A DNA stretch of 64,000 nt, taken from Clostridia bacterium. Its GTDB lineage: Bacteria; Bacillota; Clostridia; Oscillospirales; CAG-272. A program made the translations under genes and the position numbers. Where the stretch lies: NCBI GenBank assembly GCA_017451915.1, contig JAFTNJ010000002.1, positions 7,357 through 71,356 on the forward strand. Reading direction: 5' to 3'. Every line of letters starts with the position of its first letter. Positions within the stretch are counted from its first letter, which is position 1. Under the pieces are notes generated by a model, which had not been told where the DNA came from, made no database searches, and saw only the letters and a program-made list of their open reading frames with translations. Shown piece by piece: positions 30,022 to 45,142 of this stretch.

Positions 30022-30050
30022 TTGACATCAGCACTTTAACGTGATAAAAT
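30022..30050 (+). promoter_or_regulatory. promoter of the ilv-leu operon
   Basis: TTGACA 30022-27, 17 nt, TAAAAT 30045-50. Confidence 0.7.
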
Positions 30051-30076
30051 GCTACCAAAATTTAATAGCAACAAAA

Positions 30077-30536
30077 GCTGTGACGAAGAATGGTCAAGAT
30101 GCAAACGCATTTCAGAGAGCCGATGGGTGGTGTGAATCGGTATGTAACGATCTTGTCCTCTCCCTTCTGAGCCGGAAGCCTGAAGCAAACGTGTGTAGGG
30201 CGACCCGTGTATGCTACGTCAGTGCATAGAGGTTGATGGACTTCGAAATCAAAGGCGTTGATGAAGACGGAAACTGCAACGATTTTCACAGAGAGTCGGG
30301 GATGGTGTGATCCCGATAAAGGACTGTAGATTTCTTATCCCTTCTGAGCCGGAAGCCCCAAAGGTGTAAGCACCCAGTAGGCGCTCCCCGTGTATGCTAC
30401 GTTAGTGCATAGAAGTTGATGGACTTCGAAGAGGTGGCGGAATATTTGTATCCGCAATTTGAGTGGTACCGCGAGTGTTTTATCAGCACCCGTCTCAAAG
30501 CAAAATTTTTAGGCTTTGAGACGGGTGTTATTTTTT
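30077..30536 (+). promoter_or_regulatory. T-box leader with a tandemly duplicated Stem I to Stem III module
   Basis: AGAGAG bulges at 30114-19 and 30290-95. Distal loops are GGGTGGTGTGA and GATGGTGTGA. The T-box sequence AATTTGAGTGGTACCGCGAG lies at 30456-75. A terminator lies at 30487-30536. Confidence 0.8.
30487..30536 (+). terminator. T-box-controlled intrinsic terminator
   Basis: 15-bp stem CACCCGTCTCAAAGC / GCTTTGAGACGGGTG followed by TTATTTTTT. Its CTCAAA can instead pair with TTTGAG of the T-box to form the antiterminator. Confidence 0.85.
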
Positions 30537-30588: not shown

Positions 30589-31779
30589 ATGTTATCCCTC
30601 GATAAAGTATTCAATGCGCAAACGGTTCTAAGGAACCTCGTTCGTGAAACAAAGTTGGTAAGAGCTTACGGAATTGCCCCCGATTGTGAGCTCTATTTAA
30701 AGCCCGAAAACCTGCAGATTACCGGTTCCTTTAAGGTTCGGGGATCCGCATATAAAATTGCGATGCTGACCGACGAGGAAAAGAAAAAGGGCGTGATTGC
30801 CTGTTCCGCCGGAAACCATGCGCAAGGCGTGGCTCTTGCGGCAACCCAAAATGGGATCAAGTCCTTGATTTGTCTACCCGACAGCGCACCCATCTCCAAG
30901 GTGGAGGCCACCAAGGGATACGGCGCGGAGGTGTGCCTTGTGGAAGGCTGCTACGATGATGCCTACCAAAAAGCACTCGAGCTTCGTGACCGAGAGGGAT
31001 ATACCTTCGTTCATCCCTTTGACGATGAAAACGTCATCGCGGGGCAGGGCACGATTGCCCTTGAAATTCTGAACGAGCTGGACAACATCGACGCCATCGT
31101 CGTTCCCATCGGCGGCGGGGGACTGATTTCCGGCATTGCCTATACCGCAAAGCAGATCAGACCCTCCATTCGGATTTACGGTGTGCAGGTGGCGGGGGCT
31201 CCCAGCATGTACAACTCGGTCAAGGACGGAGAGATCGAGTGCCTGTCCTCGGTTTCCACCATCGCGGACGGTATTGCGGTCAAGAAGCCCGGCGAAAACA
31301 CCTACGCTCTCGTAAAGGAATACGTGGATGAGATCGCCCTTGTGACCGACGATGAGGTCTCCTCCGCGATTCTGGCACTCATCGAAAAGCAAAAAATGAT
31401 TGCCGAGGGCGCGGGAGCCACGGCGGTGGCGGCGGTGATGTTTGATAAATTCCATTTGAAGGGCAAACGGGTGGTTGCCGTGGTATCGGGCGGGAACATC
31501 GACGTTACAAGCCTTTCCCGTGTGATCGATCGCGGACTTCTCAAATCGGGACGCTCCTCAAGCCTTCTCATCGAGCTGATCGACAAGCCCGGACAGCTCA
31601 AGGAGATCTCCCGCATCATTGCCGATTGCGGCGGGAACGTCACCGGTGTGCATTATGAAAAGGGCGATACCGAGAGCGTCAACGGCTGTTTCCTCCGTAT
31701 TGAAATGGAAACAAGGGATTTTGAACACGTCAACCTCATTACCCAAACGCTTCGTGCCGAGGGATTCAAATTGGTGTAA
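30589..31779 (+). CDS. ilvA: threonine ammonia-lyase (threonine dehydratase)
   Basis: PLP lysine motif GSFKVRG, SAGNHAQGVA, and a C-terminal ACT-like domain. Confidence 0.85.
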   Translation: MLSLDKVFNAQTVLRNLVRETKLVRAYGIAPDCELYLKPENLQITGSFKVRGSAYKIAMLTDEEKKKGVIACSAGNHAQGVALAATQNGIKSLICLPDSAPISKVEATKGYGAEVCLVEGCYDDAYQKALELRDREGYTFVHPFDDENVIAGQGTIALEILNELDNIDAIVVPIGGGGLISGIAYTAKQIRPSIRIYGVQVAGAPSMYNSVKDGEIECLSSVSTIADGIAVKKPGENTYALVKEYVDEIALVTDDEVSSAILALIEKQKMIAEGAGATAVAAVMFDKFHLKGKRVVAVVSGGNIDVTSLSRVIDRGLLKSGRSSSLLIELIDKPGQLKEISRIIADCGGNVTGVHYEKGDTESVNGCFLRIEMETRDFEHVNLITQTLRAEGFKLV

Positions 31780-31807
31780 TGGTGTAATTTTGAAGGGAGT
31801 TAAAGTT

Positions 31808-32185
31808 ATGAGTAATCAAATTCAAACAAACAAAGCACCGGCGGCAATTGGCCCCTACTCGCAAGCAGTCGTTGTAGGCAATCTCATTTTTACCTCCGGA
31901 CAAATTCCGCTCCATCCCGAAACGGGAATTTTGGAGGGGAATAACATCACCGAGCAAACACACAGAGTTTGCAAAAATTTGGAGGCCGTTCTGATCGCCT
32001 CGGGTTCCTCTCCTGCCAAAGCGATCAAGACCACCTGCTTTTTGAGTGATATGGCGGATTTCGCCGCATTTAATGAAGTATACGCGCAGTATTTTACCGA
32101 AAAGCCCGCCAGAAGCTGTGTGGCGGTAAAGGATCTTCCCAAAGGCGCTCTTGTCGAGGTGGAAGTCATTGCAGAAAAGGAGTAA
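31808..32185 (+). CDS. ridA: RidA-family enamine/imine deaminase
   Basis: Inner part of ORF 31619..32185, starting at ATG 31808 after GGGAG. Motifs APAAIGPYSQA, GQIP and ARSCVAVKDLPKGALVEVE. Confidence 0.9.
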   Translation: MSNQIQTNKAPAAIGPYSQAVVVGNLIFTSGQIPLHPETGILEGNNITEQTHRVCKNLEAVLIASGSSPAKAIKTTCFLSDMADFAAFNEVYAQYFTEKPARSCVAVKDLPKGALVEVEVIAEKE

Positions 32186-32191
32186 GACGTG

Positions 32192-33865
32192 ATGATGGAT
32201 GCAAGTAAATACCGAGTGGGATATTTTCCCGTTGGCAAAGAATATAACAAGTGGGTCACCAAGGACCACATTCAAAAGCCACCCGCGTGGTGCTCGGTGG
32301 ATATGCGCGATGGCAACCAGAGCCTGATCATTCCCATGAGCCTTGAAGAAAAATTGGAATATTATAAGATGCTTCTTGAGGTTGGATTCAAGGAGATCGA
32401 AGTTGGTTTTCCTGCCGCAAGCGAAACCGAATATGAGTTTCTCCGCACGCTGATCGATAACAGGATGATTCCCGAGGACGTGACCGTTCAGGTGCTGACA
32501 CAATGCCGTGAGCATATCATCCGAAAGACCTTTGATGCCTGCAAGGGCGCGCCCAGCGCAATCATTCACTTTTACAATTCGGTCAGCGTAGCCCAGCGCG
32601 AGCAGGTGTTCAGAAAATCCAAGGATGAAATCAAGCAGATCGCCGTAGACGGCGCAAGGCTCGTCAAAAAGCTGGCCTCGGAATATGAAGGGGACTTCCG
32701 ATTCGAATATTCCCCCGAGTCCTTTACGGGTACAGAGCCCGAATATGCTTTGGAGGTCTGCAACGCGGTTCTTGACGTGCTGGAACCAAGCGAGACCAAC
32801 AACGTGATTATCAATCTTCCCGTGACTGTGGAAATGAGCCTCCCTCACGTGTACGCCTCGCAAGTGGAGTATATGAGCGAAAACCTCAAATACCGCAAAT
32901 TTGTAACCCTTTCTTTGCATCCTCACAACGACAGAGGTACGGGTGTTGCCGATACCGAGCTGGCTCTTTTGGCGGGTGCTGACCGTGTAGAGGGGACGCT
33001 GTTTGGCAACGGCGAGCGGACGGGCAACGTGGACGTTATCACGCTGGCAATGAATATGTACTCTCACGGTGTTGATCCCAAGCTCGACCTTTCAAACATG
33101 AACGAGCTTGTAGAAAAATACGAGAAATGCACCCGAATGCACGTCTATGAAAGAGCCCCTTACGCGGGCGCGCTGGTATTTGCGGCGTTTTCGGGCTCCC
33201 ATCAGGACGCGATCGCCAAGGGCATGAAATACCGTACAAAGAACAAGCTCCACGAGTGGAGCGTGCCGTATATTCCCATCGATCCCAAGGATATTGGCAG
33301 AACCTACGATGCCGATGTGATCCGTGTGAACTCTCAAAGCGGTAAGGGCGGCATCGGGTATCTCTTGGAGCAGACCTTTGGATACAATCTTCCCGCCAAA
33401 ATGCGCGAGCACTTCAGCTATCTGTGTAAAAGCGTGTCCGATCACGAGCACAAGGAGCTCAAGCCCGATGAAATTTTGGACATCTTCACCACAAACTATT
33501 TGAATCTTAACAGCGGTATATCGGTAACGGATTTTGACTTTATGCGTGAAAACGACGCAGTAAAAATCAATATTACGTTTCAAAAGAACGGTGAAGAAAC
33601 CGAGCTGGAAGCCGAGGGCAACGGTACGCTGAGTGCTGTGAACAATGCGCTCTGCGAATATACGGGCGAGGAATACACGCTGCAGGTGTTCACCCAGCAC
33701 AGTATGCAGGGCGACGGTTCTCACAGCGTTGCGGCATCCTATATCGGCCTTGAGCGTGAGGACGGCACAATGTATTGGGGTGCGGGTACAGACACCGACG
33801 TGATTACCGCAAGCACCAAAGCGCTGCTGAGCGCATTCCATAATATGATCCAAGGAGGAAACTGA
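32192..33865 (+). CDS. leuA: 2-isopropylmalate synthase (long form)
   Basis: Motifs [12 protein letters not shown] and [11 protein letters not shown] plus a C-terminal regulatory domain. ATG 32192 lies 9 nt after AAGGAG; GTG 32189 is also possible. Confidence 0.9.
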
Positions 33866-33866
33866 A

Positions 33867-35126
33867 ATGGGAATGACTATGACGCAAAAGATCCTCGCAG
33901 CTCATGCGGGACTGGACAGGGTTGAGGCAGGACAACTGATCTCGGCAAGGCTGGATATGGTTCTCGGGAACGATATTACCACGCCCGTTGCAGTTAATGA
34001 ATTTAAAAAAGCGGGATTTGATTCCGTGTTTGATAAAGACCGCGTGGCCATCGTCCTTGACCACTTTGTTCCCAACAAGGACATCAAGGCGGCGGAGCAA
34101 TCCAAAACCTGCCGTGAATTCGCCTGCGCTCATTGTGTGAGCCACTTTTACGACGTAGGTAAGATGGGCATTGAACACGCGCTTCTTCCCGAGCAGGGTG
34201 TGGTTACCGCAGGCGATTGCATTATCGGTGCGGACAGTCACACTTGCACCTACGGCGCACTCGGCGCGTTCTCCACCGGCGTCGGCTCTACCGATATGGC
34301 GGCAGGCATGGCAACGGGAATGGCGTGGTTCAAGGTGCCCTCGGCGATCAAATTCCATCTGACGGGAACGCTTCCCTCAAATTGCAGCGGCAAGGATGTG
34401 ATCCTTTCCATCATCGGTAAGATCGGTGTGGACGGAGCCCTTTATAAGAGCATGGAATTTGTGGGCGACGGCGCTCACGGACTTTCTATGGATGACAGAC
34501 TTTGCATCTGCAACATGGCAATCGAAGCGGGGGCAAAGAACGGTATTTTTCCCGTAGATGACATAACGCTTGATTATCTGAATGGCCGAAGCGAAAGAGC
34601 CCCCGTTGTTTATGAGGCCGACGCCGACGCGGAATACGAAAAGGTGATCGATATTGACCTTTCAAAAATCGTTCCCACGGTTGCATGTCCCCACCTTCCC
34701 GAAAACACGCGTCCCGCAAGCGAGCTTCACGGTATCAAGGTGGATCAGGTGGTGATCGGCTCCTGTACCAACGGCAGAATGGAGGATATGGAAGCGGCAT
34801 ACAAGATCTTGAACGGTAACAAGGTTGCCAACGGCGTACGTTGTATCATCATTCCCGGTACGATGCAGATTTTGCGCGAGTGCGTAGAGCGTGGATATTA
34901 TACCGCGTTCATTGATGCGGGCGCGGTGGTGTCCACACCTACCTGCGGTCCCTGCCTCGGCGGTTACATGGGCATTCTTGCCGCGGGCGAAAAATGCGTT
35001 GCCACCACCAACCGTAACTTTGTTGGCCGTATGGGGCACGTTGACAGTGAGGTGTACCTTGCCTCTCCCCATACTGCCGCCGCAAGTGCGCTGACCGGCT
35101 ATATCACCGAATACAAGGAGGCGTGA
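33867..35126 (+). CDS. leuC: 3-isopropylmalate dehydratase large subunit
   Basis: Aconitase-type motifs [19 protein letters not shown] and CGPCLG. Confidence 0.9.
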
Positions 35127-35128
35127 AC

Positions 35129-35626
35129 ATGAATACACAAGGAAAGGTTTTTAAATATCCCGATAACGTGGACACCGACGTTATCATCCCTGCACGGTAT
35201 CTGAATACCCCCGATGCAAAGGAGCTTGCGTTGCATTGTATGGAGGATATCGACGCTGAATTTGTGAAAAGGGTTCAGACCGGCGACGTGATGGTTGCAG
35301 GATGGAATTTTGGCTGCGGCTCGTCCCGTGAGCACGCACCGCTTGTGATCAAGACCTGCGGTACGGGGTGTGTGATTGCAAAGAGCTTTGCCCGTATTTT
35401 CTACCGCAATGCCATCAACATCGGACTTCCCATTTTGGAGTGCGAAGAAGCGGCCGAAGAGATCCGTGGGGGGGATGCGGTCAAGGTGGATTTTGATACG
35501 GGTGTCATTACCAACGTAACTACGGGAAAGACCTATCAGGCACAGCCTTTTCCGCTGTTCATTCAGAACATCATTCAATGCGGCGGACTGCTTAAATCTT
35601 TGAAAGAAGGCGAAAACAATGGTTAA
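35129..35626 (+). CDS. leuD: 3-isopropylmalate dehydratase small subunit
   Basis: ATG 35129 lies 8 nt after AGGAGG. Motif [11 protein letters not shown]. Confidence 0.9.
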
Positions 35627-36686
35627 AAATATCGCAGTGATCCGCGGTGACGGCATCGGCCCCGAGATCGTTGAACAAGCCCTGCACGTGCTTGATAGGG
35701 TTGCCGCACTGTACGGTCACACCTTCAACTATACCGATGTGGATATGGGTGGATGCGCCATTGATAAATACGGCGATCCGTTGCCCGAAAGTGAACTAAA
35801 AAAATGCATCGAATCGGACAGCGTTTTGCTGGGAGCTGTGGGAGGGAACAAATGGAACGACGTGCCCGGCCATATGCGACCCGAAAAAGGACTTCTTCGC
35901 CTCCGCGCGGGAATGGGCGTTTACTCCAACAACCGTCCCGCAAAGATCTGGAAACAGCTTGCGGATGCCTCTCCGCTGAAAAAGGAAATTGTTGATAAAG
36001 GCATCGATTTTATCATTGTTCGCGAGCTGATCGGGGGCATCTACTTTGGAGAGCACAAAACCGAAGGGGACGTTGCTACCGACGTTTTGACCTACAGCGA
36101 GGCCGAAATCGAGCGGATCGGAAGGATCGGCTTTGAAACGGCACAAAAGAGAAACAAAAAGCTTTGCTCGGTAGAAAAGAGTAACGTTCTCGATTCCAGC
36201 CGCCTTTGGAAGAAGGTGATGCACCGACTCGCCGACGAATATCCCGACGTTGAGCTTTCGGATATGCTTGTTGACAACTGTGCGATGCAGATCGTCAAAA
36301 ATCCCGCGCAGTTTGACGTTATCGTCACCGAGAATATGTTTGGCGACATCCTTTCGGATGAGGCATCGATGATTACAGGCTCTATCGGTATGATCCCTTC
36401 GTCAAGCCTTGGCGCAACTACCTGCGGACTGTATGAGCCGATCCACGGTTCCGCTCCCGATATTGCGGGGCAGGATAAAGCGAACCCCATTGGTACAATC
36501 CTCTCGGCCGCTATGATGCTTCGCTTCAGCTTTGATATGCGTGATGAGGCGGATGCCATCGAAAATGCCGTTTCCGCGTATCTTGACGCAGGGTATCGCA
36601 CCGCCGATATTATGAGCGAGGGAGAAAGCCTCGTTGGCTGTCGTCGGTGCGGCGAGCTGATTGTTGAAAATTTAAGAAAGGGGTGA
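35619..36686 (+). CDS. leuB: 3-isopropylmalate dehydrogenase
   Basis: Motifs [30 protein letters not shown] and GSAPDIAG. Confidence 0.9.
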
Positions 36687-36691
36687 GGAAT

Positions 36692-38361
36692 ATGCAACTT
36701 TGCGGTGCAGATATTCTTGTAAAAACCTTAATTGAACAGGGCTGTAAAACGGTTTTCGGTTATCCCGGAGGTCAGATCTTGAACGTGTACGACAGCCTTT
36801 ATAAATATCAAAACGAGATCCACCACGTTTTGACCGCCCACGAGCAAGGCGCGGCACACGCGGCAGACGGCTACGCGCGGACCACGGGCAAGGTCGGTGT
36901 TGTGATCTCCACCTCGGGGCCCGGTGCTACCAACCTGGTCACCGGCATTGCCACCGCGTATCTTGACTCCGTCCCGATGGTCGCGATCTGCGGAAACGTA
37001 CCAACCACCCAGATCGGTACGGATAGCTTCCAGGAGATCGATATTACCGGTATTACGCTGCCCATCACCAAGCACAATTATTTTGTCAGCAACGTGGAGG
37101 CTTTGGCGGACACCGTTCGTGAGGCCTTCCGACTTGCCCAATCGGGCAGACCGGGGCCGGTGTTGATCGACGTTCCCAAGGACGTGCAGATCGCAACCTG
37201 CGAATATGAAGCGGGGACTCCCGTGGAGAAGGACGCCCCCTTTGCCGCAAAGGACGTACGGATCCAAGAAGCGGCAGAGATCATCAATTCTGCCAAACGC
37301 CCCTTCATTTACTTTGGCGGCGGCGTGATTACGTCGAATGCACAGGAGGAGGTGCTGGCTCTTGCGGAAAAGATTGACGCCCCCATCGGTTGCTCTCTCA
37401 TGGGACTTTCGGCAATTCCCACCGATCATCCGAGATTTCTTGGTATGCAGGGAATGCACGGGCATTATGCGTCCTCCATGTCCATGCACAACGCCGATGT
37501 GATTCTATCTCTCGGGGTTCGCTTTAACGACCGCGTTACGGGCAACCGCACCAAATTTGCCACGGGGGCCCGCATCGTTCACGTTGACGTGGATGGCTCG
37601 GAGCTGAATAAAACGGTCAACTCGGTTTGCGGTCTACGTGGAGATGTAAAGCTTACCCTGCAAAAGCTTCTGCCTCTTTTGAATGAAGGTGCCAAGCCCG
37701 ATTGGATGGCAAGGGTCAGTGCCTTCCGAGAGGAAGAGGAAAGCTATCTCGACAACCGCGCGGGGCTCACACCTCGCAGAGCGATCTTGACCCTAAACAA
37801 GCATCTCGGAGAAACCACCGCCGTTTGTACCGACGTGGGGCAACACCAGATGTGGTCGGCGCAAAGTCTTCATTTCAAAACCGCAAGACGCTTTGCCTCC
37901 AGCGGTGGTCTTGGCACCATGGGGTACGGCTTCGGCGCGGCCATCGGCGCGGCGTACGGTACGGGCGAGAGAAGTGTTCTCGTCACGGGTGACGGAAGCT
38001 TCGGCATGAATCTCAACGAATTGGCGACCGCGGTTCGCTATGGCGTTCCCGTGGTGGTGGTCATTATGAACAACGGTGTGCTGGGAATGGTTCGCCAATG
38101 GCAGACTTTGTTCTATGATAAGCATTATTCCAACTCGGTACTCGAAAGAAAGACCGATTTTGCCGCCTTTGCCAAAGCCTTTGGCGCGGATGGCGAAGCG
38201 GTGACAACCCCCGAGGAATTGGATGAGGCTCTCGGTCGCGCGTTTGCATACGACGGCCCTTATATCATCGATTGCAAGATTGATCAGGACGAATTCGTTC
38301 TTCCCATGCTCCCGCCCGGCGGATGTATGGATGATATTATTACAAAATTGGAGGTGGAACA

Positions 38362-38365
<4 letters not shown>
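36692..38365 (+). CDS. ilvB: acetolactate synthase large subunit (ThDP-dependent)
   Basis: Motifs GYPGG, HEQGAAHAADGYAR and GLGTMGYGFGAAIGA...GDGSF...NNGVLGMVRQWQ. ATG 36692 was chosen over GTG 36683. Confidence 0.9.
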
Positions 38366-39907
<1,542 letters not shown>

Positions 39908-39941
39908 TTTTAATTTGTGCAACGAAACAACCGCATATTTT

Positions 39942-40041
39942 GCCCTCTCCGTCACGCTTCGCGTGCCACCTCTCCCAAAGTGAGAGGCTTACATTATAGG
40001 CTCCCCCTTTGGGGGAGCTCCCGCAACGCGGGTGAGAGGGC
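39942..40041 (+). repeat. about 100-nt multi-hairpin GC-rich element in the ilvC-ilvD spacer
   Basis: Outer arms GCCCTCTC (39942-49) / GAGAGGGC (40034-41) enclose two hairpins: CCTCTC/GAGAGG (39969-87) and GCTCCCCC/GGGGGAGC (40000-18). Confidence 0.6.
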
Positions 40042-40069
40042 GACGGTTAGATTCCGAAAGGAGAAAAAT

Positions 40070-41725
40070 ATGTCAAAAGAAAATGTAGTTACAGGTGTTC
40101 ACAATGCACCTCACCGTAGCTTGTTCCATGCTTTGGGGCTCACCGAGGAAGAACAAAAACGCCCCTTGATCGGTATCGTCAGCTCCTATAACGAGATCGT
40201 TCCCGGACACATGAATCTTGATAAGATCGTGGATGCCGTCAAGCTGGGCGTTGCCATGGCAGGCGGAACTCCCATCGTATTTCCCGCCATTGCCGTTTGC
40301 GACGGCATTGCCATGGGACACACGGGAATGAAATACTCCCTCGTTACCCGTGATCTGATTGCCGACAGCACCGAGGCGATGGCACTTGCCCACGGCTTTG
40401 ACGGACTTGTGATGGTGCCGAACTGCGACAAAAACGTTCCCGGACTGCTCATGGCGGCGGCGAGAGTGAATATCCCTACCGTTTTTGTCAGCGGCGGCCC
40501 CATGCTTGCCGGCAGGGTGGAAGGGAAGAAGACCAGTCTTTCCTCCATGTTTGAGGCGGTGGGCGCGTATAACGCGGGCAAGATTACCGACGAAAAGCTC
40601 TATGAATACGAATGTAAGACCTGTCCCACCTGCGGCTCCTGCTCGGGTATGTATACCGCAAACTCCATGAACTGCCTGACCGAGGCGCTTGGCATGGGGC
40701 TTGGCGGAAACGGCACCATTCCCGCCGTTTACTCCGCGCGCATCGAGCTTGCCAAGCACGCGGGTATGGCGGTAATGAAGCTGCTGGAGAAGAATATCCG
40801 TCCCCGCGACATTATGACCAAGGAGGCGCTGATGAACGCCCTCACGGTGGATATGGCACTGGGATGCTCCACCAACAGTATGCTTCACCTTCCTGCCATC
40901 GCCCACGAGTGCGGTGTGGACCTGAACCTGGATATTGCCAATCAGATCAGCGAAAAGACTCCCAACCTCTGCCATCTGGCGCCCGCGGGCAGAACCTATA
41001 TGGAGGATCTGAACGAGGCGGGCGGCGTCTATGCCGTGATGAACGAGCTGACCAAAAAGAATCTGCTTTATACCGATTGCATGACCGTGACGGGCAAGAC
41101 CATTGGTGAGAACATCGCGGGTTGCGTCAATCTCGACCCCGAGGTCATCCGTCCGATCGAAAATCCCTACAGCGAAACGGGCGGTATTGCGGTACTCAAA
41201 GGAAACCTCGCCCCCGAGGGAAGCGTGGTCAAGCGATCTGCGGTGCTTCCCGAAATGCTGGTGCACGAGGGGCCCGCAAAGGTGTTTGATTCCGAGGAAG
41301 AGGCGCAGGCGGCAATCAACGGCGGCAAGATCGTGGCGGGGGACGTGGTCGTGATCCGCTACGAAGGCCCCAAGGGTGGCCCGGGGATGCGCGAGATGCT
41401 CAACCCCACCTCTGCCATCATGGGTATGGGGCTTGGCAACAGCGTGGCACTCATCACCGACGGACGCTTCAGCGGTGCGACGCGAGGCGCTTGCATCGGT
41501 CACGTTACCCCCGAAGCCGCTTCGGGCGGTATGATCGGTGTGGTAGAGGACGGCGATATCATCTGCATCAACATCCCCGAAAACACCATTGAGCTAAAGG
41601 TGGATGCCGAGGTCCTTGCCGAGCGTATGAAGCATTTTGTGCCCAAGAAAAAAGAGCTTTCGGGCTACCTGAAACGCTATGCGGCATTGGTTTCGGGCGG
41701 CGCGTCGGGGGCAATACTGAACTGA
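40070..41725 (+). CDS. ilvD: dihydroxy-acid dehydratase
   Basis: ORF 39917..41725 trimmed to ATG 40070 after AGGAG ([18 protein letters not shown]). Motifs CDKNVPG and [15 protein letters not shown]. Confidence 0.9.
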
Positions 41726-41726
41726 T

Positions 41727-42890
41727 ATGAAAGCGCTTAAGGAAAAATTGTTTGCTCTGTGCATTTTCCGCGATCTTTTGGAGGATGCGGTATTTGACGC
41801 GCTGTTTACCCACATCAAGCACCCATCCGTTGCAAGCTATGCCGAATTCGTATCTCTCCTGTATGCGGCAAACGGTGGCAATCTGGGAGAGTATGTGAAG
41901 GAGCTCTGCTGGAACAGCGAAAATGTTTTTGTAAAAACGGTTGGCGCAAAAAAATCCATCCCCAGCTATATGCGGGATGCCGTGGAAGCAGAATTGGATA
42001 TTTTGCAAGAGGTGTCGACCATGGATAAGGAAGCTCTTTGCGCTCCTCTAAAGTACAACGGCTTTCTTCCGGACTTCACCACCACCGAGCTGCGGTTAAA
42101 GGAGATCTATCTGCACCGTGCCGAGAATATCGGGAAATACGGCTACGGTATTTATGCCAAGAACCGGATGTTTAACGTAAGCGAAGCCGGCGATATCGTT
42201 CCGGTTCGCAATCCCGACAAAACCGAGCTTTCGGATCTTGTGGATTATGCGCGTGAGAGAGGCATCATCCTGGAGAATACCAAGGCCCTGCTTGCCGGAA
42301 AGCCTGCGGCGAACATTCTGCTCACGGGGGATGCGGGCACGGGCAAATCCTCTACCGTAAAGGCGGTTGCAAACGCCTTGTGGAGCGAGGGGCTTCGCAT
42401 TGTTGAGGTGCGGAAGGATCAGCTTCGCTTGATTCCCAAGGTGCTTGACGAGCTGTCCGGCAATCCGCTCAAATTCGTTTTGTTTATCGACGACCTTTCG
42501 TTTTTAAAGGATGATGATAACTTTAACGCGCTGAAAGCGGTGTTGGAGGGATCGGTCACGGCAAAATCAAGCAACGTGGTGATCTATGCCACAAGCAACC
42601 GCCGCCACATTGTTAAGGAAACCTTTTCCGGCCGCGAAGGGGATGACGTGCATCGCAACGATACCATGCAGGAGCTGGTCTCTTTGTCGGAGCGCTTTGG
42701 AATTCATGTTACGTTTTCCAAGCCCGGTAAGGAAACCTTCCTTCACATCGTTCATCATCTGGCAAACGAAAACGGCATTGATATGCAAACGGACGAGCTG
42801 GATCTGTTAGCCGAGCGTTTTGCGCTGGAGCGCGGCGGCAGAAGCGCAAGACTTGCAAGGCAGTTTATTGACGGAATACTTGCGAGGTGA
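41727..42890 (+). CDS. DUF815-type P-loop ATPase
   Basis: Walker A GDAGTGKSS, Walker B FVLFIDDLSF, and YATSNRRH. Starts 1 nt after the ilvD stop. Confidence 0.7.
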   Translation: MKALKEKLFALCIFRDLLEDAVFDALFTHIKHPSVASYAEFVSLLYAANGGNLGEYVKELCWNSENVFVKTVGAKKSIPSYMRDAVEAELDILQEVSTMDKEALCAPLKYNGFLPDFTTTELRLKEIYLHRAENIGKYGYGIYAKNRMFNVSEAGDIVPVRNPDKTELSDLVDYARERGIILENTKALLAGKPAANILLTGDAGTGKSSTVKAVANALWSEGLRIVEVRKDQLRLIPKVLDELSGNPLKFVLFIDDLSFLKDDDNFNALKAVLEGSVTAKSSNVVIYATSNRRHIVKETFSGREGDDVHRNDTMQELVSLSERFGIHVTFSKPGKETFLHIVHHLANENGIDMQTDELDLLAERFALERGGRSARLARQFIDGILAR

Positions 42891-45065: not shown

Positions 45066-45142
45066 TGGTCGAGGTGACGGGATTCGAACCCACGACTTCT
45101 ACGTCCCGAACGTAGCGCTCTACCAAACTGAGCCACACCTCG
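45066..45142 (-). tRNA. tRNA-Pro (anticodon CGG), CCA-encoded
   Basis: The reverse complement folds by hand into a cloverleaf. Acceptor is CGAGGTG/CACCTCG, D arm GCTC-AGTTTGGTA-GAGC, anticodon arm CTACG-TTCGGGA-CGTAG, T arm GTGGG-TTCGAAT-CCCGT, with discriminator A and CCA. Confidence 0.9.

Follow-up and report, generated by a model that had tools for sequence, protein, structure and literature searches.

The leader of an ilv-leu operon in a 64,000-nt stretch of Clostridia bacterium DNA (hereafter the window; all features described here lie on its + strand) is a T-box leader, at 30071-30536, with two tandem copies of the tRNA-decoding part (30071-30248 and 30249-30432) ahead of a single Stem III, a single T-box/antiterminator and a single terminator (30437-30536). 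This two-decoder leader with one discriminator is real, and its two modules carry different specifiers, CUC (Leu, 30160-30162) upstream and AUC (Ile, 30337-30339) downstream. We propose, from sequence comparison, that the two decoders may act in series on the shared discriminator, either uncharged tRNA giving read-through (OR-type), a reading that we hold to be evenly poised between right and wrong.

Two decoding modules before one discriminator

We searched the leader with the Rfam T-box model RF00230, whose gathering score is 93 bits. When the leader was searched alone, copy 2 together with the discriminator (30249-30500) scored 78.9 bits (E 2.5e-17) and copy 1 scored 55.1 bits (E 3e-11) with 57 antiterminator model positions deleted; on the whole window the E-values were 2e-15 and 3e-9. 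The original prediction had proposed such a search and named a single scoring module as the outcome that would count against it; both modules score. Because both copies lie below 93 bits, a default whole-window Rfam scan at the gathering threshold returns no T-box match, and annotation pipelines overlook the leader. As judged from these alignments, the T-box homology of both copies is nevertheless beyond doubt. Homologous leaders do exceed the threshold: L048 scores 94.2 bits, and L070, from clade E (see below), combines a full T-box at 95.7 bits with a decoder-only match at 63.2 bits, the pattern found in the window.

The repeat unit consists of Stem I, Stem II, a IIA/B pseudoknot and a small extra hairpin, with a spacing of 175-183 nt. 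In the upstream (Leu) module, 30071-30248, which is supported by the 55.1-bit match, by covariation in 18 genomes and by conservation against neutral controls, Stem I (30077-30172) contains a K-turn, the base helix GAAG/CUUC, the AG bulge (30113-30119) and the distal loop (30125-30135), and is followed by Stem II (30175-30204), the pseudoknot (30206-30228) and the extra hairpin (30229-30244); a Stem III, T-box sequence or terminator of its own is absent. The downstream (Ile) module, 30249-30432, which lies within the 78.9-bit hit and is also recognized by an nhmmer profile, has the same layout: Stem I (30255-30349) with K-turn, GAAG/CUUC, AG bulge (30289-30295) and distal loop (30300-30310), then Stem II, the pseudoknot (30389-30411) and the extra hairpin (30412-30427). 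The GA/K-turn motif reads TGACGAAG (30081-88) in copy 1 and TGATGAAG (30259-66) in copy 2, and K-turn and specifier loop take the form UGAC/UGAU-GAAG ... CUUC-UGA-GC in both modules. The AG bulge is CAGAGAG in each copy, and the distal loops are GGGTGGTGTGA (30125-35) and GGATGGTGTGA (30300-10), with the distal-loop motif GGGUGGUGUGA at 30125 and GGAUGGUGUGA at 30300. Bulge and distal loop are near-invariant across 24 aligned modules, the upstream distal loop being divergent in L021 and L030, and both modules align to the Stem II and IIA/B pseudoknot parts of the Rfam model. The hallmark motifs listed in the original prediction were all located, and the Rfam model and the relatives agree that this is a genuine T-box. 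A small ATG-initiated frame is present inside Stem I.

Both specifier triplets fall on the Rfam specifier positions, CUC in the loop UCCU-CUC-C directly 5' of the CUUC helix, and AUC in the loop UCUU-AUC-C, again 5' of CUUC. The 3' sides of the two loops are UCCUCUCC and UCUUAUCC, in which the GAA of the canonical S-turn (AGUA/GAA) is absent, and the codon is followed on its 3' side by C here and by any of the four bases (C, A, G or U) in relatives rather than consistently by a purine. Single-decoder relatives have this atypical loop too, so it is not specific to the dual design and is a peculiarity of the lineage. We also considered an alternative specifier frame, CUC/UUA (both Leu), and rejected it: UUA is not conserved (CCA or CUA elsewhere), whereas AUC is invariant.

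The copies match at 42 of 44 positions between 30204-47 and 30387-430 and at 23 of 25 between 30156-80 and 30333-57, the segments 30162-80 and 30339-57 being identical, as had been described. Compared across relatives, these long identical stretches are mostly motifs kept in every relative (the K-turn 3' strand with the Stem II base, and the IIA/B pseudoknot) rather than a sign of recent duplication; the upper Stem I helices differ between the modules (CCGAU/AUCGG upstream, UCGGG/CCCGA downstream). The decoders are 10 nt apart (the first ends at 30244, the second starts at 30255; the Rfam hits are 12 nt apart) and are joined by an A-rich, single-stranded linker, GAAAUCAAAG (30245-30254). Among relatives this linker varies in sequence and in length (given as about 10-16 nt and as about 10-25 nt), and holds no conserved contact marking a defined docking geometry.

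Stem III (GCGGA..UCCGC, 30437-30455) is present in a single copy outside the repeat, according to the Rfam and discriminator alignments. The original prediction had the whole part from Stem I to Stem III duplicated; the tandem decoder repeat stands, but the hairpin GAGGUU..GACUUC (30229-44 and 30412-27) that had been taken for Stem III is the extra hairpin. The T-box sequence (30456-75) and antiterminator together occupy 30456-30499 (Rfam alignment and sequence). Antiterminator helix A1 is formed by UUUGAG (30458-63) with CUCAAA (30494-99), and the bulge UGGU (30464-67) has as its predicted partner an ACCA 3' end, with discriminator base A73, a base common to Leu, Ile and Val tRNAs. The intrinsic terminator (30487-30536) is a perfect 15-bp stem (30487-501 with 30513-27) followed by a T-run (30528-36), and folds at -43 kcal/mol (z -6.4). 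Its 5' arm overlaps the antiterminator 3' strand, and the two structures are thus mutually exclusive; the complementarity of TTTGAG and CTCAAA and the perfect inverted repeat had both been called correctly. In minimum-free-energy folds of the single modules and of the whole leader, z-scores were about 0 and the terminator alone stood out; such folds are uninformative for Stem I, as expected for a motif-rich RNA.

Upstream of copy 1 lies a sigma-70-type promoter, TTGACA-17-TAAAAT with an extended -10 TG (30022-30050; 11 of 12 matches). A promoter scan detected no second promoter-like site in the leader region and none between the modules, and both decoders are therefore expected on one transcript. 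A terminator scan limited to loops of at most 8 nt detected no terminator between the modules; it missed the real terminator as well, since the loop of the latter is 11 nt. The untranslated leader is about 530 nt long, with the upstream module at its extreme 5' end. The regulated operon (30589-42890), annotated with NCBIfam and Pfam, consists of ilvA (30589-31779), ridA (31808-32185), leuA (32189-33865), leuC (33867-35126), leuD (35123-35626), leuB (35619-36686), ilvB (36683-38365), ilvN (38362-38868), ilvC (38888-39907), ilvD (39917-41725) and a DUF815 ATPase gene (41727-42890). An RNA family search found no further RNA element within 30589-42890. We considered whether the 410 nt separating ilvA from leuA might hold a second regulator and discarded the idea: ridA lies there, and an RNA family match is absent.

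An adjacent-sensor riboswitch is by definition one whose sensor domains are less than 20 nt apart and whose first sensor has no terminator (PMC12452182). The leader corresponds to this arrangement, with two neighbouring decoders and a sole platform at 30437-30536; it does not correspond to a complete tandem, which has an antiterminator and a terminator per unit, as 30071-30536 holds one T-box sequence and one terminator. That a single antiterminator/terminator lies behind two modules, unlike in complete tandem units, had been the core of the original prediction and is borne out by the Rfam model and by the relatives. The modules had also been regarded as duplicate tRNA-docking copies; both are decoders, but they are not equivalent, one reading Leu CUC and the other Ile AUC. 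Because the specifier codons differ, the question becomes one of two-input sensing rather than of tRNA stoichiometry.

Decoder order, codon identity and conservation in relatives

We found the arrangement [Leu][Ile][one discriminator] in 18 species-level genomes, and 6 species of a more distant clade (clade E) have the modules the other way round, [Ile AUC][Leu CUC], before their one discriminator; about two dozen gut bacterial species retain the two-decoder/one-discriminator design. Loss of the upstream copy in relatives had been named as a point that would speak against the original prediction, and in these 18 and 6 species-level genomes the copy is conserved. Seventeen of the 18 dual genomes have CUC as the upstream triplet and the remaining one has the synonymous CUG, while the loop positions next to it are variable; the downstream AUC is present in all 18 and is invariant in dual and single-Ile relatives alike. 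At least three metagenomic contigs (L094, L126 and L169) carry [Val GUC][Ile AUC] before an ilvA-ilvBNCD-DUF815 operon without leu genes. Of the CUC relatives among the matches listed, the one closest to this Val lineage is L131, with 92% identity and a difference at codon base 1; the link between a Val codon and leu loss comes from a single lineage, one event. Among the matches listed in the metagenome pattern scan, about 90% were false positives in which the first CAGAGAG lay in an upstream coding region (a 368-nt family and others), and the genuine ones all belonged to the same ilvA-leader family.

Other relatives carry a single decoder, Leu (L010) or Ile (L002 and others), joined to the same discriminator via the same linker. 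All ten single-Leu leaders precede leu genes. Many close relatives place a single decoder before the same mixed operon (Ile only in L006 and L027, Leu only in L010), so the second input has been dispensable in evolution. L018 and three clade-E genomes keep a Leu decoder with leu genes not directly after ilvA; in these four genomes, ilvBNCD still serve leucine synthesis. Across leaders, having any Leu decoder goes only partly with having leu genes, and phylogeny confounds the comparison. One relative, L048, has a complete tandem, a Leu unit followed by an Ile unit, each with its own promoter, T-box and terminator. Traces of exchange between copies were also seen: L012 and L035 share variants across both modules, and module 1 of L023 has a Stem II of the module-2 type.

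The alignments indicate that the upstream decoder is under purifying selection. For covariation, the structure was transferred from the Rfam alignment and pairs were counted on module-1-only sequences from the 18 genomes. In the upstream decoder 90.2% of cells were paired, against 31-43% when partners were slid, and 12 base pairs showed changes on both sides, a score reached by none of 500 shuffles. Pseudoknot pairs of the upstream module were formed in 97.8% of cases, and its Stem II contains three pairs with compensatory changes. Mean pairwise identity was 0.753 for the upstream decoder (0.744 for Stem I alone), 0.832 for module 2 and 0.813 for the discriminator; as controls, DNA upstream of the promoter gave 0.509 against 0.505 when shuffled, and ilvA four-fold sites gave 0.376 against 0.255 expected at saturation, that is, they are near saturation. 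Clade E gives an identity of 0.905 for the upstream decoder and of 0.637 for four-fold sites. Copy-to-copy identity was 0.702 within a genome and 0.688 between genomes, an excess too weak for gene conversion to explain the conservation. RNAalifold on a mixed alignment of both module types gave a poor structure, because MAFFT misaligns the two Stem I types, and was replaced by the analysis above. What the sequence comparison shows is the two-decoder architecture, conserved with the modules in either order, together with selection on each module and codons that match operon content.

A shared discriminator and the alternatives to it

The proposed mechanism would run as follows. The upstream module would dock tRNA-Leu via CUC and the downstream module tRNA-Ile via AUC, each bringing its own K-turn, elbow-binding AG-bulge/distal-loop platform, Stem II and IIA/B pseudoknot. 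To get to the shared discriminator, the docked tRNA-Leu would have to span the flexible A-rich linker together with the downstream module in its folded state. Either uncharged tRNA would stabilise the antiterminator at the UGGU bulge, which fits A73, and a shortage of leucine OR of isoleucine would then induce the mixed ilvA-leuACDB-ilvBNCD operon. What we infer here is that each module binds a tRNA, that the upstream tRNA can get to the discriminator, and that the logic is OR. Two complete T-boxes in series amount to AND logic, so that induction by either signal is impossible with them. Charged and uncharged tRNAs bind Stem I alike and are discriminated only at the discriminator, where the UGGN bulge pairs with NCCA, and decoding and discriminator domains are modular, with a flexible linker between them (PMC7583486). 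Since aminoacylation is read only there, and only one discriminator is present, the upstream module could report leucine starvation only through the shared site, and competition between two docked tRNAs is the most likely form of such control. We think it somewhat short of an even call that the leader is a natural RNA OR gate in this full sense, with Leu and Ile tRNAs (Val and Ile in the sister lineage) docked side by side and competing for one discriminator. Several observations speak against the OR model: the upstream decoder is separated from the discriminator by about 180 nt of folded RNA, contrary to the molecular-ruler view; the linker is variable, the specifier loops look atypical, and single-decoder relatives have the same operon.

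In the prevailing view the T-box works as a molecular ruler, with a single tRNA clamped between Stem I and discriminator, a geometry that speaks against a distant decoder reaching that site and leaves room for an indirect role: the upstream module would bind tRNA-Leu, the 3' end of this tRNA would never enter the discriminator, and the module would only help or hinder the co-transcriptional folding of the downstream module or of the discriminator, set a threshold, or tie read-through to both tRNAs (AND or modulatory logic). We consider this unlikely, though it deserves attention. A module with all tRNA-docking motifs and under selection is what such a role needs too, and the modules have near-identical K-turn 3' strands and terminal hairpin arms, making cross-pairing possible; these segments form an inverted repeat, the minimum-free-energy fold pairs both hairpin regions, and cross-pairing is feasible in almost every genome. 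However, a module that never presents its tRNA to the discriminator cannot report leucine charging, and, Stem I being blind to charging, there would be no reason to keep a Leu codon or to switch to Val when leu genes are lost. AND logic would also suit a mixed Ile/Leu operon poorly, and the divergence of the upper Stem I helices (CCGAU/AUCGG versus UCGGG/CCCGA) favours independent local folding. A hairpin-swap model, in which the 5' arm of the decoder 1 hairpin pairs with the 3' arm of that of decoder 2 and loops out decoder 2, was set aside: the sole informative hairpin variant, L023, favours local hairpins over cross-pairing, although this test is without power because the arms are nearly invariant.

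The existence of the complete Leu-then-Ile tandem in L048 raises the question of whether the upstream module is a relic of such a leader that lost its first antiterminator and terminator, with only the Ile T-box regulating and with recency or gene conversion from the functional copy accounting for the persistence of the upstream one. The exchange traces in L012, L035 and L023, the weak excess of within-genome identity and the frequency of single-Ile leaders among close relatives would fit this, but we judge it improbable: although neutral sites of the same genomes have almost reached saturation, the upstream Stem I is still 74% identical, with compensatory changes, and is too unlike the downstream one to have been repaired by conversion. 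The codon is invariant or synonymous in the 18 genomes and switches to Val alongside operon content, and in clade E, where the order is reversed, it is the Ile module that would have to be dead. Tandem repeats are easily deleted (L010 resembles a deletion product), so that persistence itself argues for selection. That the module derives from a T-box Stem I but serves a function unrelated to tRNA, such as stabilising the 5' end, acting in pausing or processing, or binding a protein, seems to us very improbable indeed. The position at the very 5' end of the ~530-nt leader and the sub-gathering Rfam score would agree with it, but the specifier triplet, AGAGA bulge, GGUG distal loop, Stem II S-turn region and IIA/B pseudoknot are all conserved, and the triplet changes solely to synonymous or operon-matching codons.

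Comparison with known T-boxes and tandem riboswitches

T-boxes are understood as one tRNA and one switch, and tandem T-boxes as complete units in series. A full-text literature search found no description of two decoders with one discriminator; a listing in Vitreschak et al. 2008 is possible. If the shared-discriminator reading is true, the leader would be a modular heterotypic T-box in which interchangeable Leu, Ile and Val decoders work in either order on one discriminator; it would be the first natural OR-type riboswitch and the first T-box shown to accommodate two tRNAs simultaneously, and its discriminator would be reachable from a decoder ~180 nt away, contrary to a strict molecular-ruler picture. 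It makes testable how partially tandem T-boxes work, whether RNA performs OR logic and what separation of decoder and discriminator is tolerable, and would show, in a simple natural rule, how mixed biosynthetic operons can be placed under multi-input control, besides serving as a template on which tRNA-responsive logic could be engineered.

With the canonical T-box (RF00230; B. subtilis ilv-leu) the leader shares the K-turn, specifier loop, AG bulge/distal loop, Stem II, IIA/B pseudoknot, Stem III, a T-box sequence with a UGGN bulge, and mutually exclusive antiterminator and terminator. The Bacillus subtilis ilv-leu leader has a CUC leucine specifier (Marta et al. 1996, in PMC2494555); here too a branched-chain amino acid operon is preceded by CUC for Leu, and the third codon position obeys the 'C rule'. 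Unlike the canonical form, the window leader has two full decoders with different codons before one discriminator, specifier loops without the GAA half of the S-turn or the invariant post-codon purine, and an extra hairpin between pseudoknot and Stem III. Complete tandem T-boxes are known from B. subtilis thrZ and Firmicute trp operons; they too have at least two Stem I domains per leader, by duplication, and units for branched-chain amino acids may differ in specificity (L048). 'T-box T-box' leaders of ilv/leu genes have been described (PMC12452182). In complete tandems each unit has an antiterminator and a terminator, giving an AND gate in series or a sharper response, whereas the first unit in the window lacks Stem III, T-box sequence and terminator, and only ~10 nt separate the modules.

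Partial rather than complete duplication is a feature shared with T-boxes with duplicated terminator-antiterminator elements, reportedly described by Vitreschak et al. 2008, of which our leader is the mirror image: there the platform is doubled behind one specifier domain, here the specifier domain is doubled before one platform. Those duplicated platforms are probably part of the 'partially tandem T-boxes' of a 2020 review, which gives their mode of action as unknown (PMC7583486). The use of one discriminator for two tRNAs, with genes serving two amino acids, also recalls the NT-box. This two-codon element of Clostridium acetobutylicum (Saad et al. 2013 PNAS, cited in PMC4574755 and PMC7778990) reportedly has a single Stem I with two overlapping codons and accepts one tRNA at a time; unlike it, the window leader has two separate full decoders that could be occupied simultaneously. 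Among tandem riboswitches, that for guanine and PRPP is an IMPLY gate (PMC5912903), and a 2022 survey counted OR among the logic functions 'not naturally observed' (PMC9481103). Like the tandem glycine and guanine-PRPP riboswitches, the leader combines two sensors without an intervening terminator, one expression platform and two-input logic; those riboswitches sense small molecules, whereas the window leader is proposed to sense two tRNAs, and their aminoacylation, at a shared site.

A repeated decoder before a single discriminator

We showed that one transcript carries two complete, selected T-box decoders of different specificity ahead of one discriminator. The only promoter-like site found by a promoter scan of the leader region, a strong one (TTGACA-17-TAAAAT with an extended -10 TG, 30022-30050, + strand) lies 540 nt upstream of ilvA and predicts a transcript start about 10-20 nt 5' of the first T-box element; a FliB-like flagellin lysine-N-methylase gene (NF038110; 28752-29936, +) ends 135 nt before this promoter. 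The original prediction had proposed tandem tRNA-binding modules with one antiterminator/terminator, and every motif it listed was found where it had been placed. The tandem repeat is real: the 44-nt segments at 30204-47 and 30387-430 have two mismatches, as do the 25-nt segments at 30156-80 and 30333-57 (the latter both in the loop), and the spacing is 175-183 nt. The terminator is likewise single (a perfect 15-bp stem, 30487-501/30513-27, +, then a T-run), and the 5' arm of this stem shares sequence with the antiterminator's 3' strand. The proposed extent of the repeat, from Stem I to Stem III, did not hold for Stem III: in the Rfam alignment Stem III (GCGGA..UCCGC, 30437-55, +) is single-copy and directly 5' of the T-box sequence, and the hairpin taken for it is an extra element (GAGGUU-GAUG-GACUUC, 30229-44 and 30412-27, +) between the IIA/B pseudoknot and Stem III. 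Hence only the decoding part (Stem I, Stem II, IIA/B pseudoknot and extra hairpin) is repeated, and the discriminator is not. In genomes with saturated neutral sites, both copies keep the extra hairpin's arms (GARGUU/GACUUC) nearly unchanged; the arms show no compensatory changes among the [Leu][Ile] leaders (clade A) and covary in locus L048 (GGGAUU/GAUCCU), which points to sequence-specific constraint beyond simple pairing.

The Rfam T-box model had been expected to recognise both copies and one antiterminator, which was the case when the leader was searched alone: 30249-30500 scored 78.9 bits over the full model and 30071-30236 scored 55.1 bits with 57 Stem III and antiterminator positions deleted. 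At the gathering score, the model matched nothing in the whole window. The window's leader falls below this threshold because of insertions; homologous leaders pass it, among them that of locus L070, with a full T-box at 95.7 bits and, further upstream, a decoder-only match of 63.2 bits. A permissive scan of the whole window again found both copies (E 2e-15 and 3e-9), its only other match being the tRNA-Pro(CGG) gene (45066-45142, -) downstream of the operon.

At the model's specifier positions, the upstream module presents CUC (Leu; 30160-62, +) and the downstream module AUC (Ile; 30337-39, +), the conserved 25-nt block of the two copies reading UCCUCUCC versus UCUUAUCC. All 18 two-module genomes have AUC as the downstream triplet; 17 have CUC upstream, L023 has the synonymous CUG instead, and the loop bases flanking both triplets vary. 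Judged by these triplets, the two modules specify different tRNAs, Leu and Ile. An alternative frame reading UUA (Leu) in module 2 was rejected, UUA not being conserved. The T-box bulge, UGGU, pairs with an ACCA end, and A73 is common to bacterial Leu, Ile and Val tRNAs; therefore, one discriminator can fit all three.

Of the structural T-box hallmarks, the leader lacks just two, the canonical S-turn and a purine following the codon, and both are also missing in single-decoder relatives. The specifier loops (30156-30163 and 30333-30340 in the window, and those of relatives) are pyrimidine-rich and lack the GAA half of the S-turn; in the window's lineage, any of C, A, G and U can follow the codon in place of the usual purine. 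The 3' side of the loop would be just N-codon-N if the neighbouring helix is extended by GG/CC pairs. The upstream Stem I distal loop of L021 and L030 is AGUUAGCUGAAA or GAUUAGCUGAAA, versus the usual GGUUGGUGCGA, and elbow binding by this module may be altered or lost there.

Leader states and selection on the upstream module

Our set was 80 loci with an IlvA relative (74-95% identity); each came from an Oscillospirales MAG of gut or rumen origin, with one genome per species. We searched it with nhmmer profiles, one each for module 1, module 2 and the discriminator, extracted the specifier context and read the leaders directly. Five leader states were found upstream of ilvA, and representatives of each were confirmed by Rfam. 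As the original prediction implied, the upstream copy is kept in relatives: [Leu][Ile][one discriminator] occurs in the window and 17 other genomes, and the reverse order, [Ile AUC][Leu CUC][one discriminator], in the six genomes of clade E (IlvA about 75% identical). A single Ile T-box precedes ilvA at about 17 loci, and a single Leu T-box in 10 close relatives and in more distant ones (e.g. L049, L054). In the single-Leu leader L010 (1839-2091; one Rfam T-box), Stem I and Stem II are of the module-1 type, and they are joined to a terminal hairpin of the module-2 type (GAAGUU) and the usual linker to Stem III. It looks like what remains of a dual leader after its repeats recombined and deleted the stretch between them, and indicates that the Leu decoder works directly with this discriminator. 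The fifth state, two complete units (Leu then Ile), was found in L048, with two full Rfam T-boxes. There the whole regulatory unit (TTGACA..TATAAT promoter-like site, T-box and terminator) is duplicated at 136-1036; the units are about 90% identical, the first with a CUC (Leu) codon and the second with an AUC (Ile) codon. A transcript begun at the first promoter would face both terminators, one begun at the second just the Ile terminator.

A metagenome scan with an architecture-specific pattern gave further members of clades A and E among the matches listed, most of which were false positives, and revealed [Val GUC][Ile AUC][one discriminator] in at least four contigs (L094, L126, L160, L169). 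L081 and at least about 75 other loci, an abundant human-gut single T-box, were rejected; they match the dual pattern solely through a chance CAGAGAG in the coding region before the leader, so motif-spacing scans easily yield false dual T-boxes.

With the structure transferred from the Rfam alignment to the 18 upstream modules alone, standard pairs filled 90.2% of cells, versus 31-43% when partners were slid by 1-3 columns. Both sides had changed at 12 pairs (K-turn stem, base helix, middle and distal Stem I helices, Stem II), and the covariation score was reached by 0 of 500 shuffles. Mean pairwise identity across the 18 clade A genomes was 0.753 for the upstream module (Stem I alone, 0.744), 0.832 for the downstream module and 0.813 for the discriminator; it was 0.509 for the 180 nt upstream of the promoter, 0.505 for shuffled sequence and 0.376 at ilvA four-fold degenerate sites (saturation expectation, 0.255). 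In clade E, the upstream decoder reached 0.905 versus 0.637 at four-fold sites. Traces of exchange between copies exist (L012 and L035 have variants common to both modules, and module 1 of L023 carries a module-2-type Stem II), the within-genome excess of identity being small (0.702 versus 0.688, permutation p ~0.006); conversion could not maintain the upstream Stem I, because the two Stem I sequences are too different. By these comparisons, the two-module leader is conserved and under selection.

Codons and operon content

Most [Leu][Ile] leaders are followed by ilvA-ridA-leuA-leuC-leuD-leuB-ilvBNCD, and the [Val][Ile] leaders by ilvA-ilvBNCD-DUF815, without leu genes. Close single-Leu leaders have leu genes downstream in 10 of 10 cases, and where ilvBNCD directly follows ilvA, one-decoder leaders are always of the Ile type. 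L018 and half of clade E keep the Leu decoder with leu genes not directly after ilvA. The nearest CUC-bearing relative of the [Val][Ile] leaders, L131, is 92% identical in its leader and differs in the first codon base; the Val switch counts as one evolutionary event, since it occurs in a single lineage. The match between codon and operon content is suggestive, not statistical proof.

L001 (5595-6020) and L154 (2525-2806), whose genomes retain the Leu+Ile dual leader, hold short fragments between ridA and ilvB that match leuA and leuB and are apparently left over from a deleted leuACDB block. In the window, ilvA and leuA are separated by a Rid-family enamine/imine deaminase gene (31808-32185, +; TIGR00004, 166 bits) that many, though not all, relatives share; this fits the known role of RidA, which clears the reactive enamine that threonine dehydratase produces. 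The operon seems to end with a DUF815 AAA-ATPase gene (41727-42890, +; PF05673, 276 bits), which begins 2 nt downstream of the ilvD stop; L094 and L169 likewise have a homologue (65% identical) 3' of ilvD in their Val+Ile operons. L094 has a tRNA-Leu(UAG) gene (878-961, +) about 900 nt upstream of its dual leader.

Mechanism and known systems

Both module orders are viable, and either decoder occurs alone before the same discriminator. Charged and uncharged tRNAs are told apart solely at the T-box discriminator, Stem I binding both (PMC7583486). Because charging is read only there, an upstream module that selection maintains with a codon matched to the operon can convey Leu charging only through the 3' end of its tRNA at the single discriminator. 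We propose that tRNA-Leu docked upstream would present its 3' end to it, and that either uncharged tRNA, Leu or Ile, would stabilise the antiterminator. This OR-type logic, tentative though quite possibly correct, would suit an operon with an Ile-specific ilvA, a Leu-specific leuACDB and a common ilvBNCD. About 180 nt of folded RNA lies between the upstream decoder and the discriminator; the A-rich inter-module linker is variable in length, suggesting a flexible tether with no fixed geometry. For a hairpin-swap conformer, in which decoder 2 would be looped out, the data speak neither way.

An indirect or AND-type role of the upstream module appears less likely. Complete T-boxes in series would give AND, and a 2025 survey (PMC12452182) reads 'T-box T-box' leaders of BCAA genes in this way. 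In a complete tandem T-box each unit has its own expression platform; the window leader is not one, because its first unit has none, a distinction that the original prediction had drawn correctly. That the upstream module is a relic of such a tandem is improbable, as the rates, the codons and the reverse module order all speak against it, and a role unrelated to tRNA is more improbable still.

The original interpretation is supported, with the anatomy of the repeat corrected. The leader is conserved and selected, and its two-input mechanism is open to testing. A full-text literature search, with several key T-box papers outside it, found no description of two heterotypic decoders with one common discriminator. 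By architecture, the window's leader fits the riboswitch class of adjacent sensors with a single platform, a class so far made up of small-molecule aptamers. The abstract of Vitreschak 2008 reportedly describes a partial T-box class with a duplicated terminator-antiterminator, of which the window leader, with its duplicated decoder, is the mirror image. Its closest functional analogue is the two-codon NT-box, in which one Stem I presents two overlapping codons to one discriminator.
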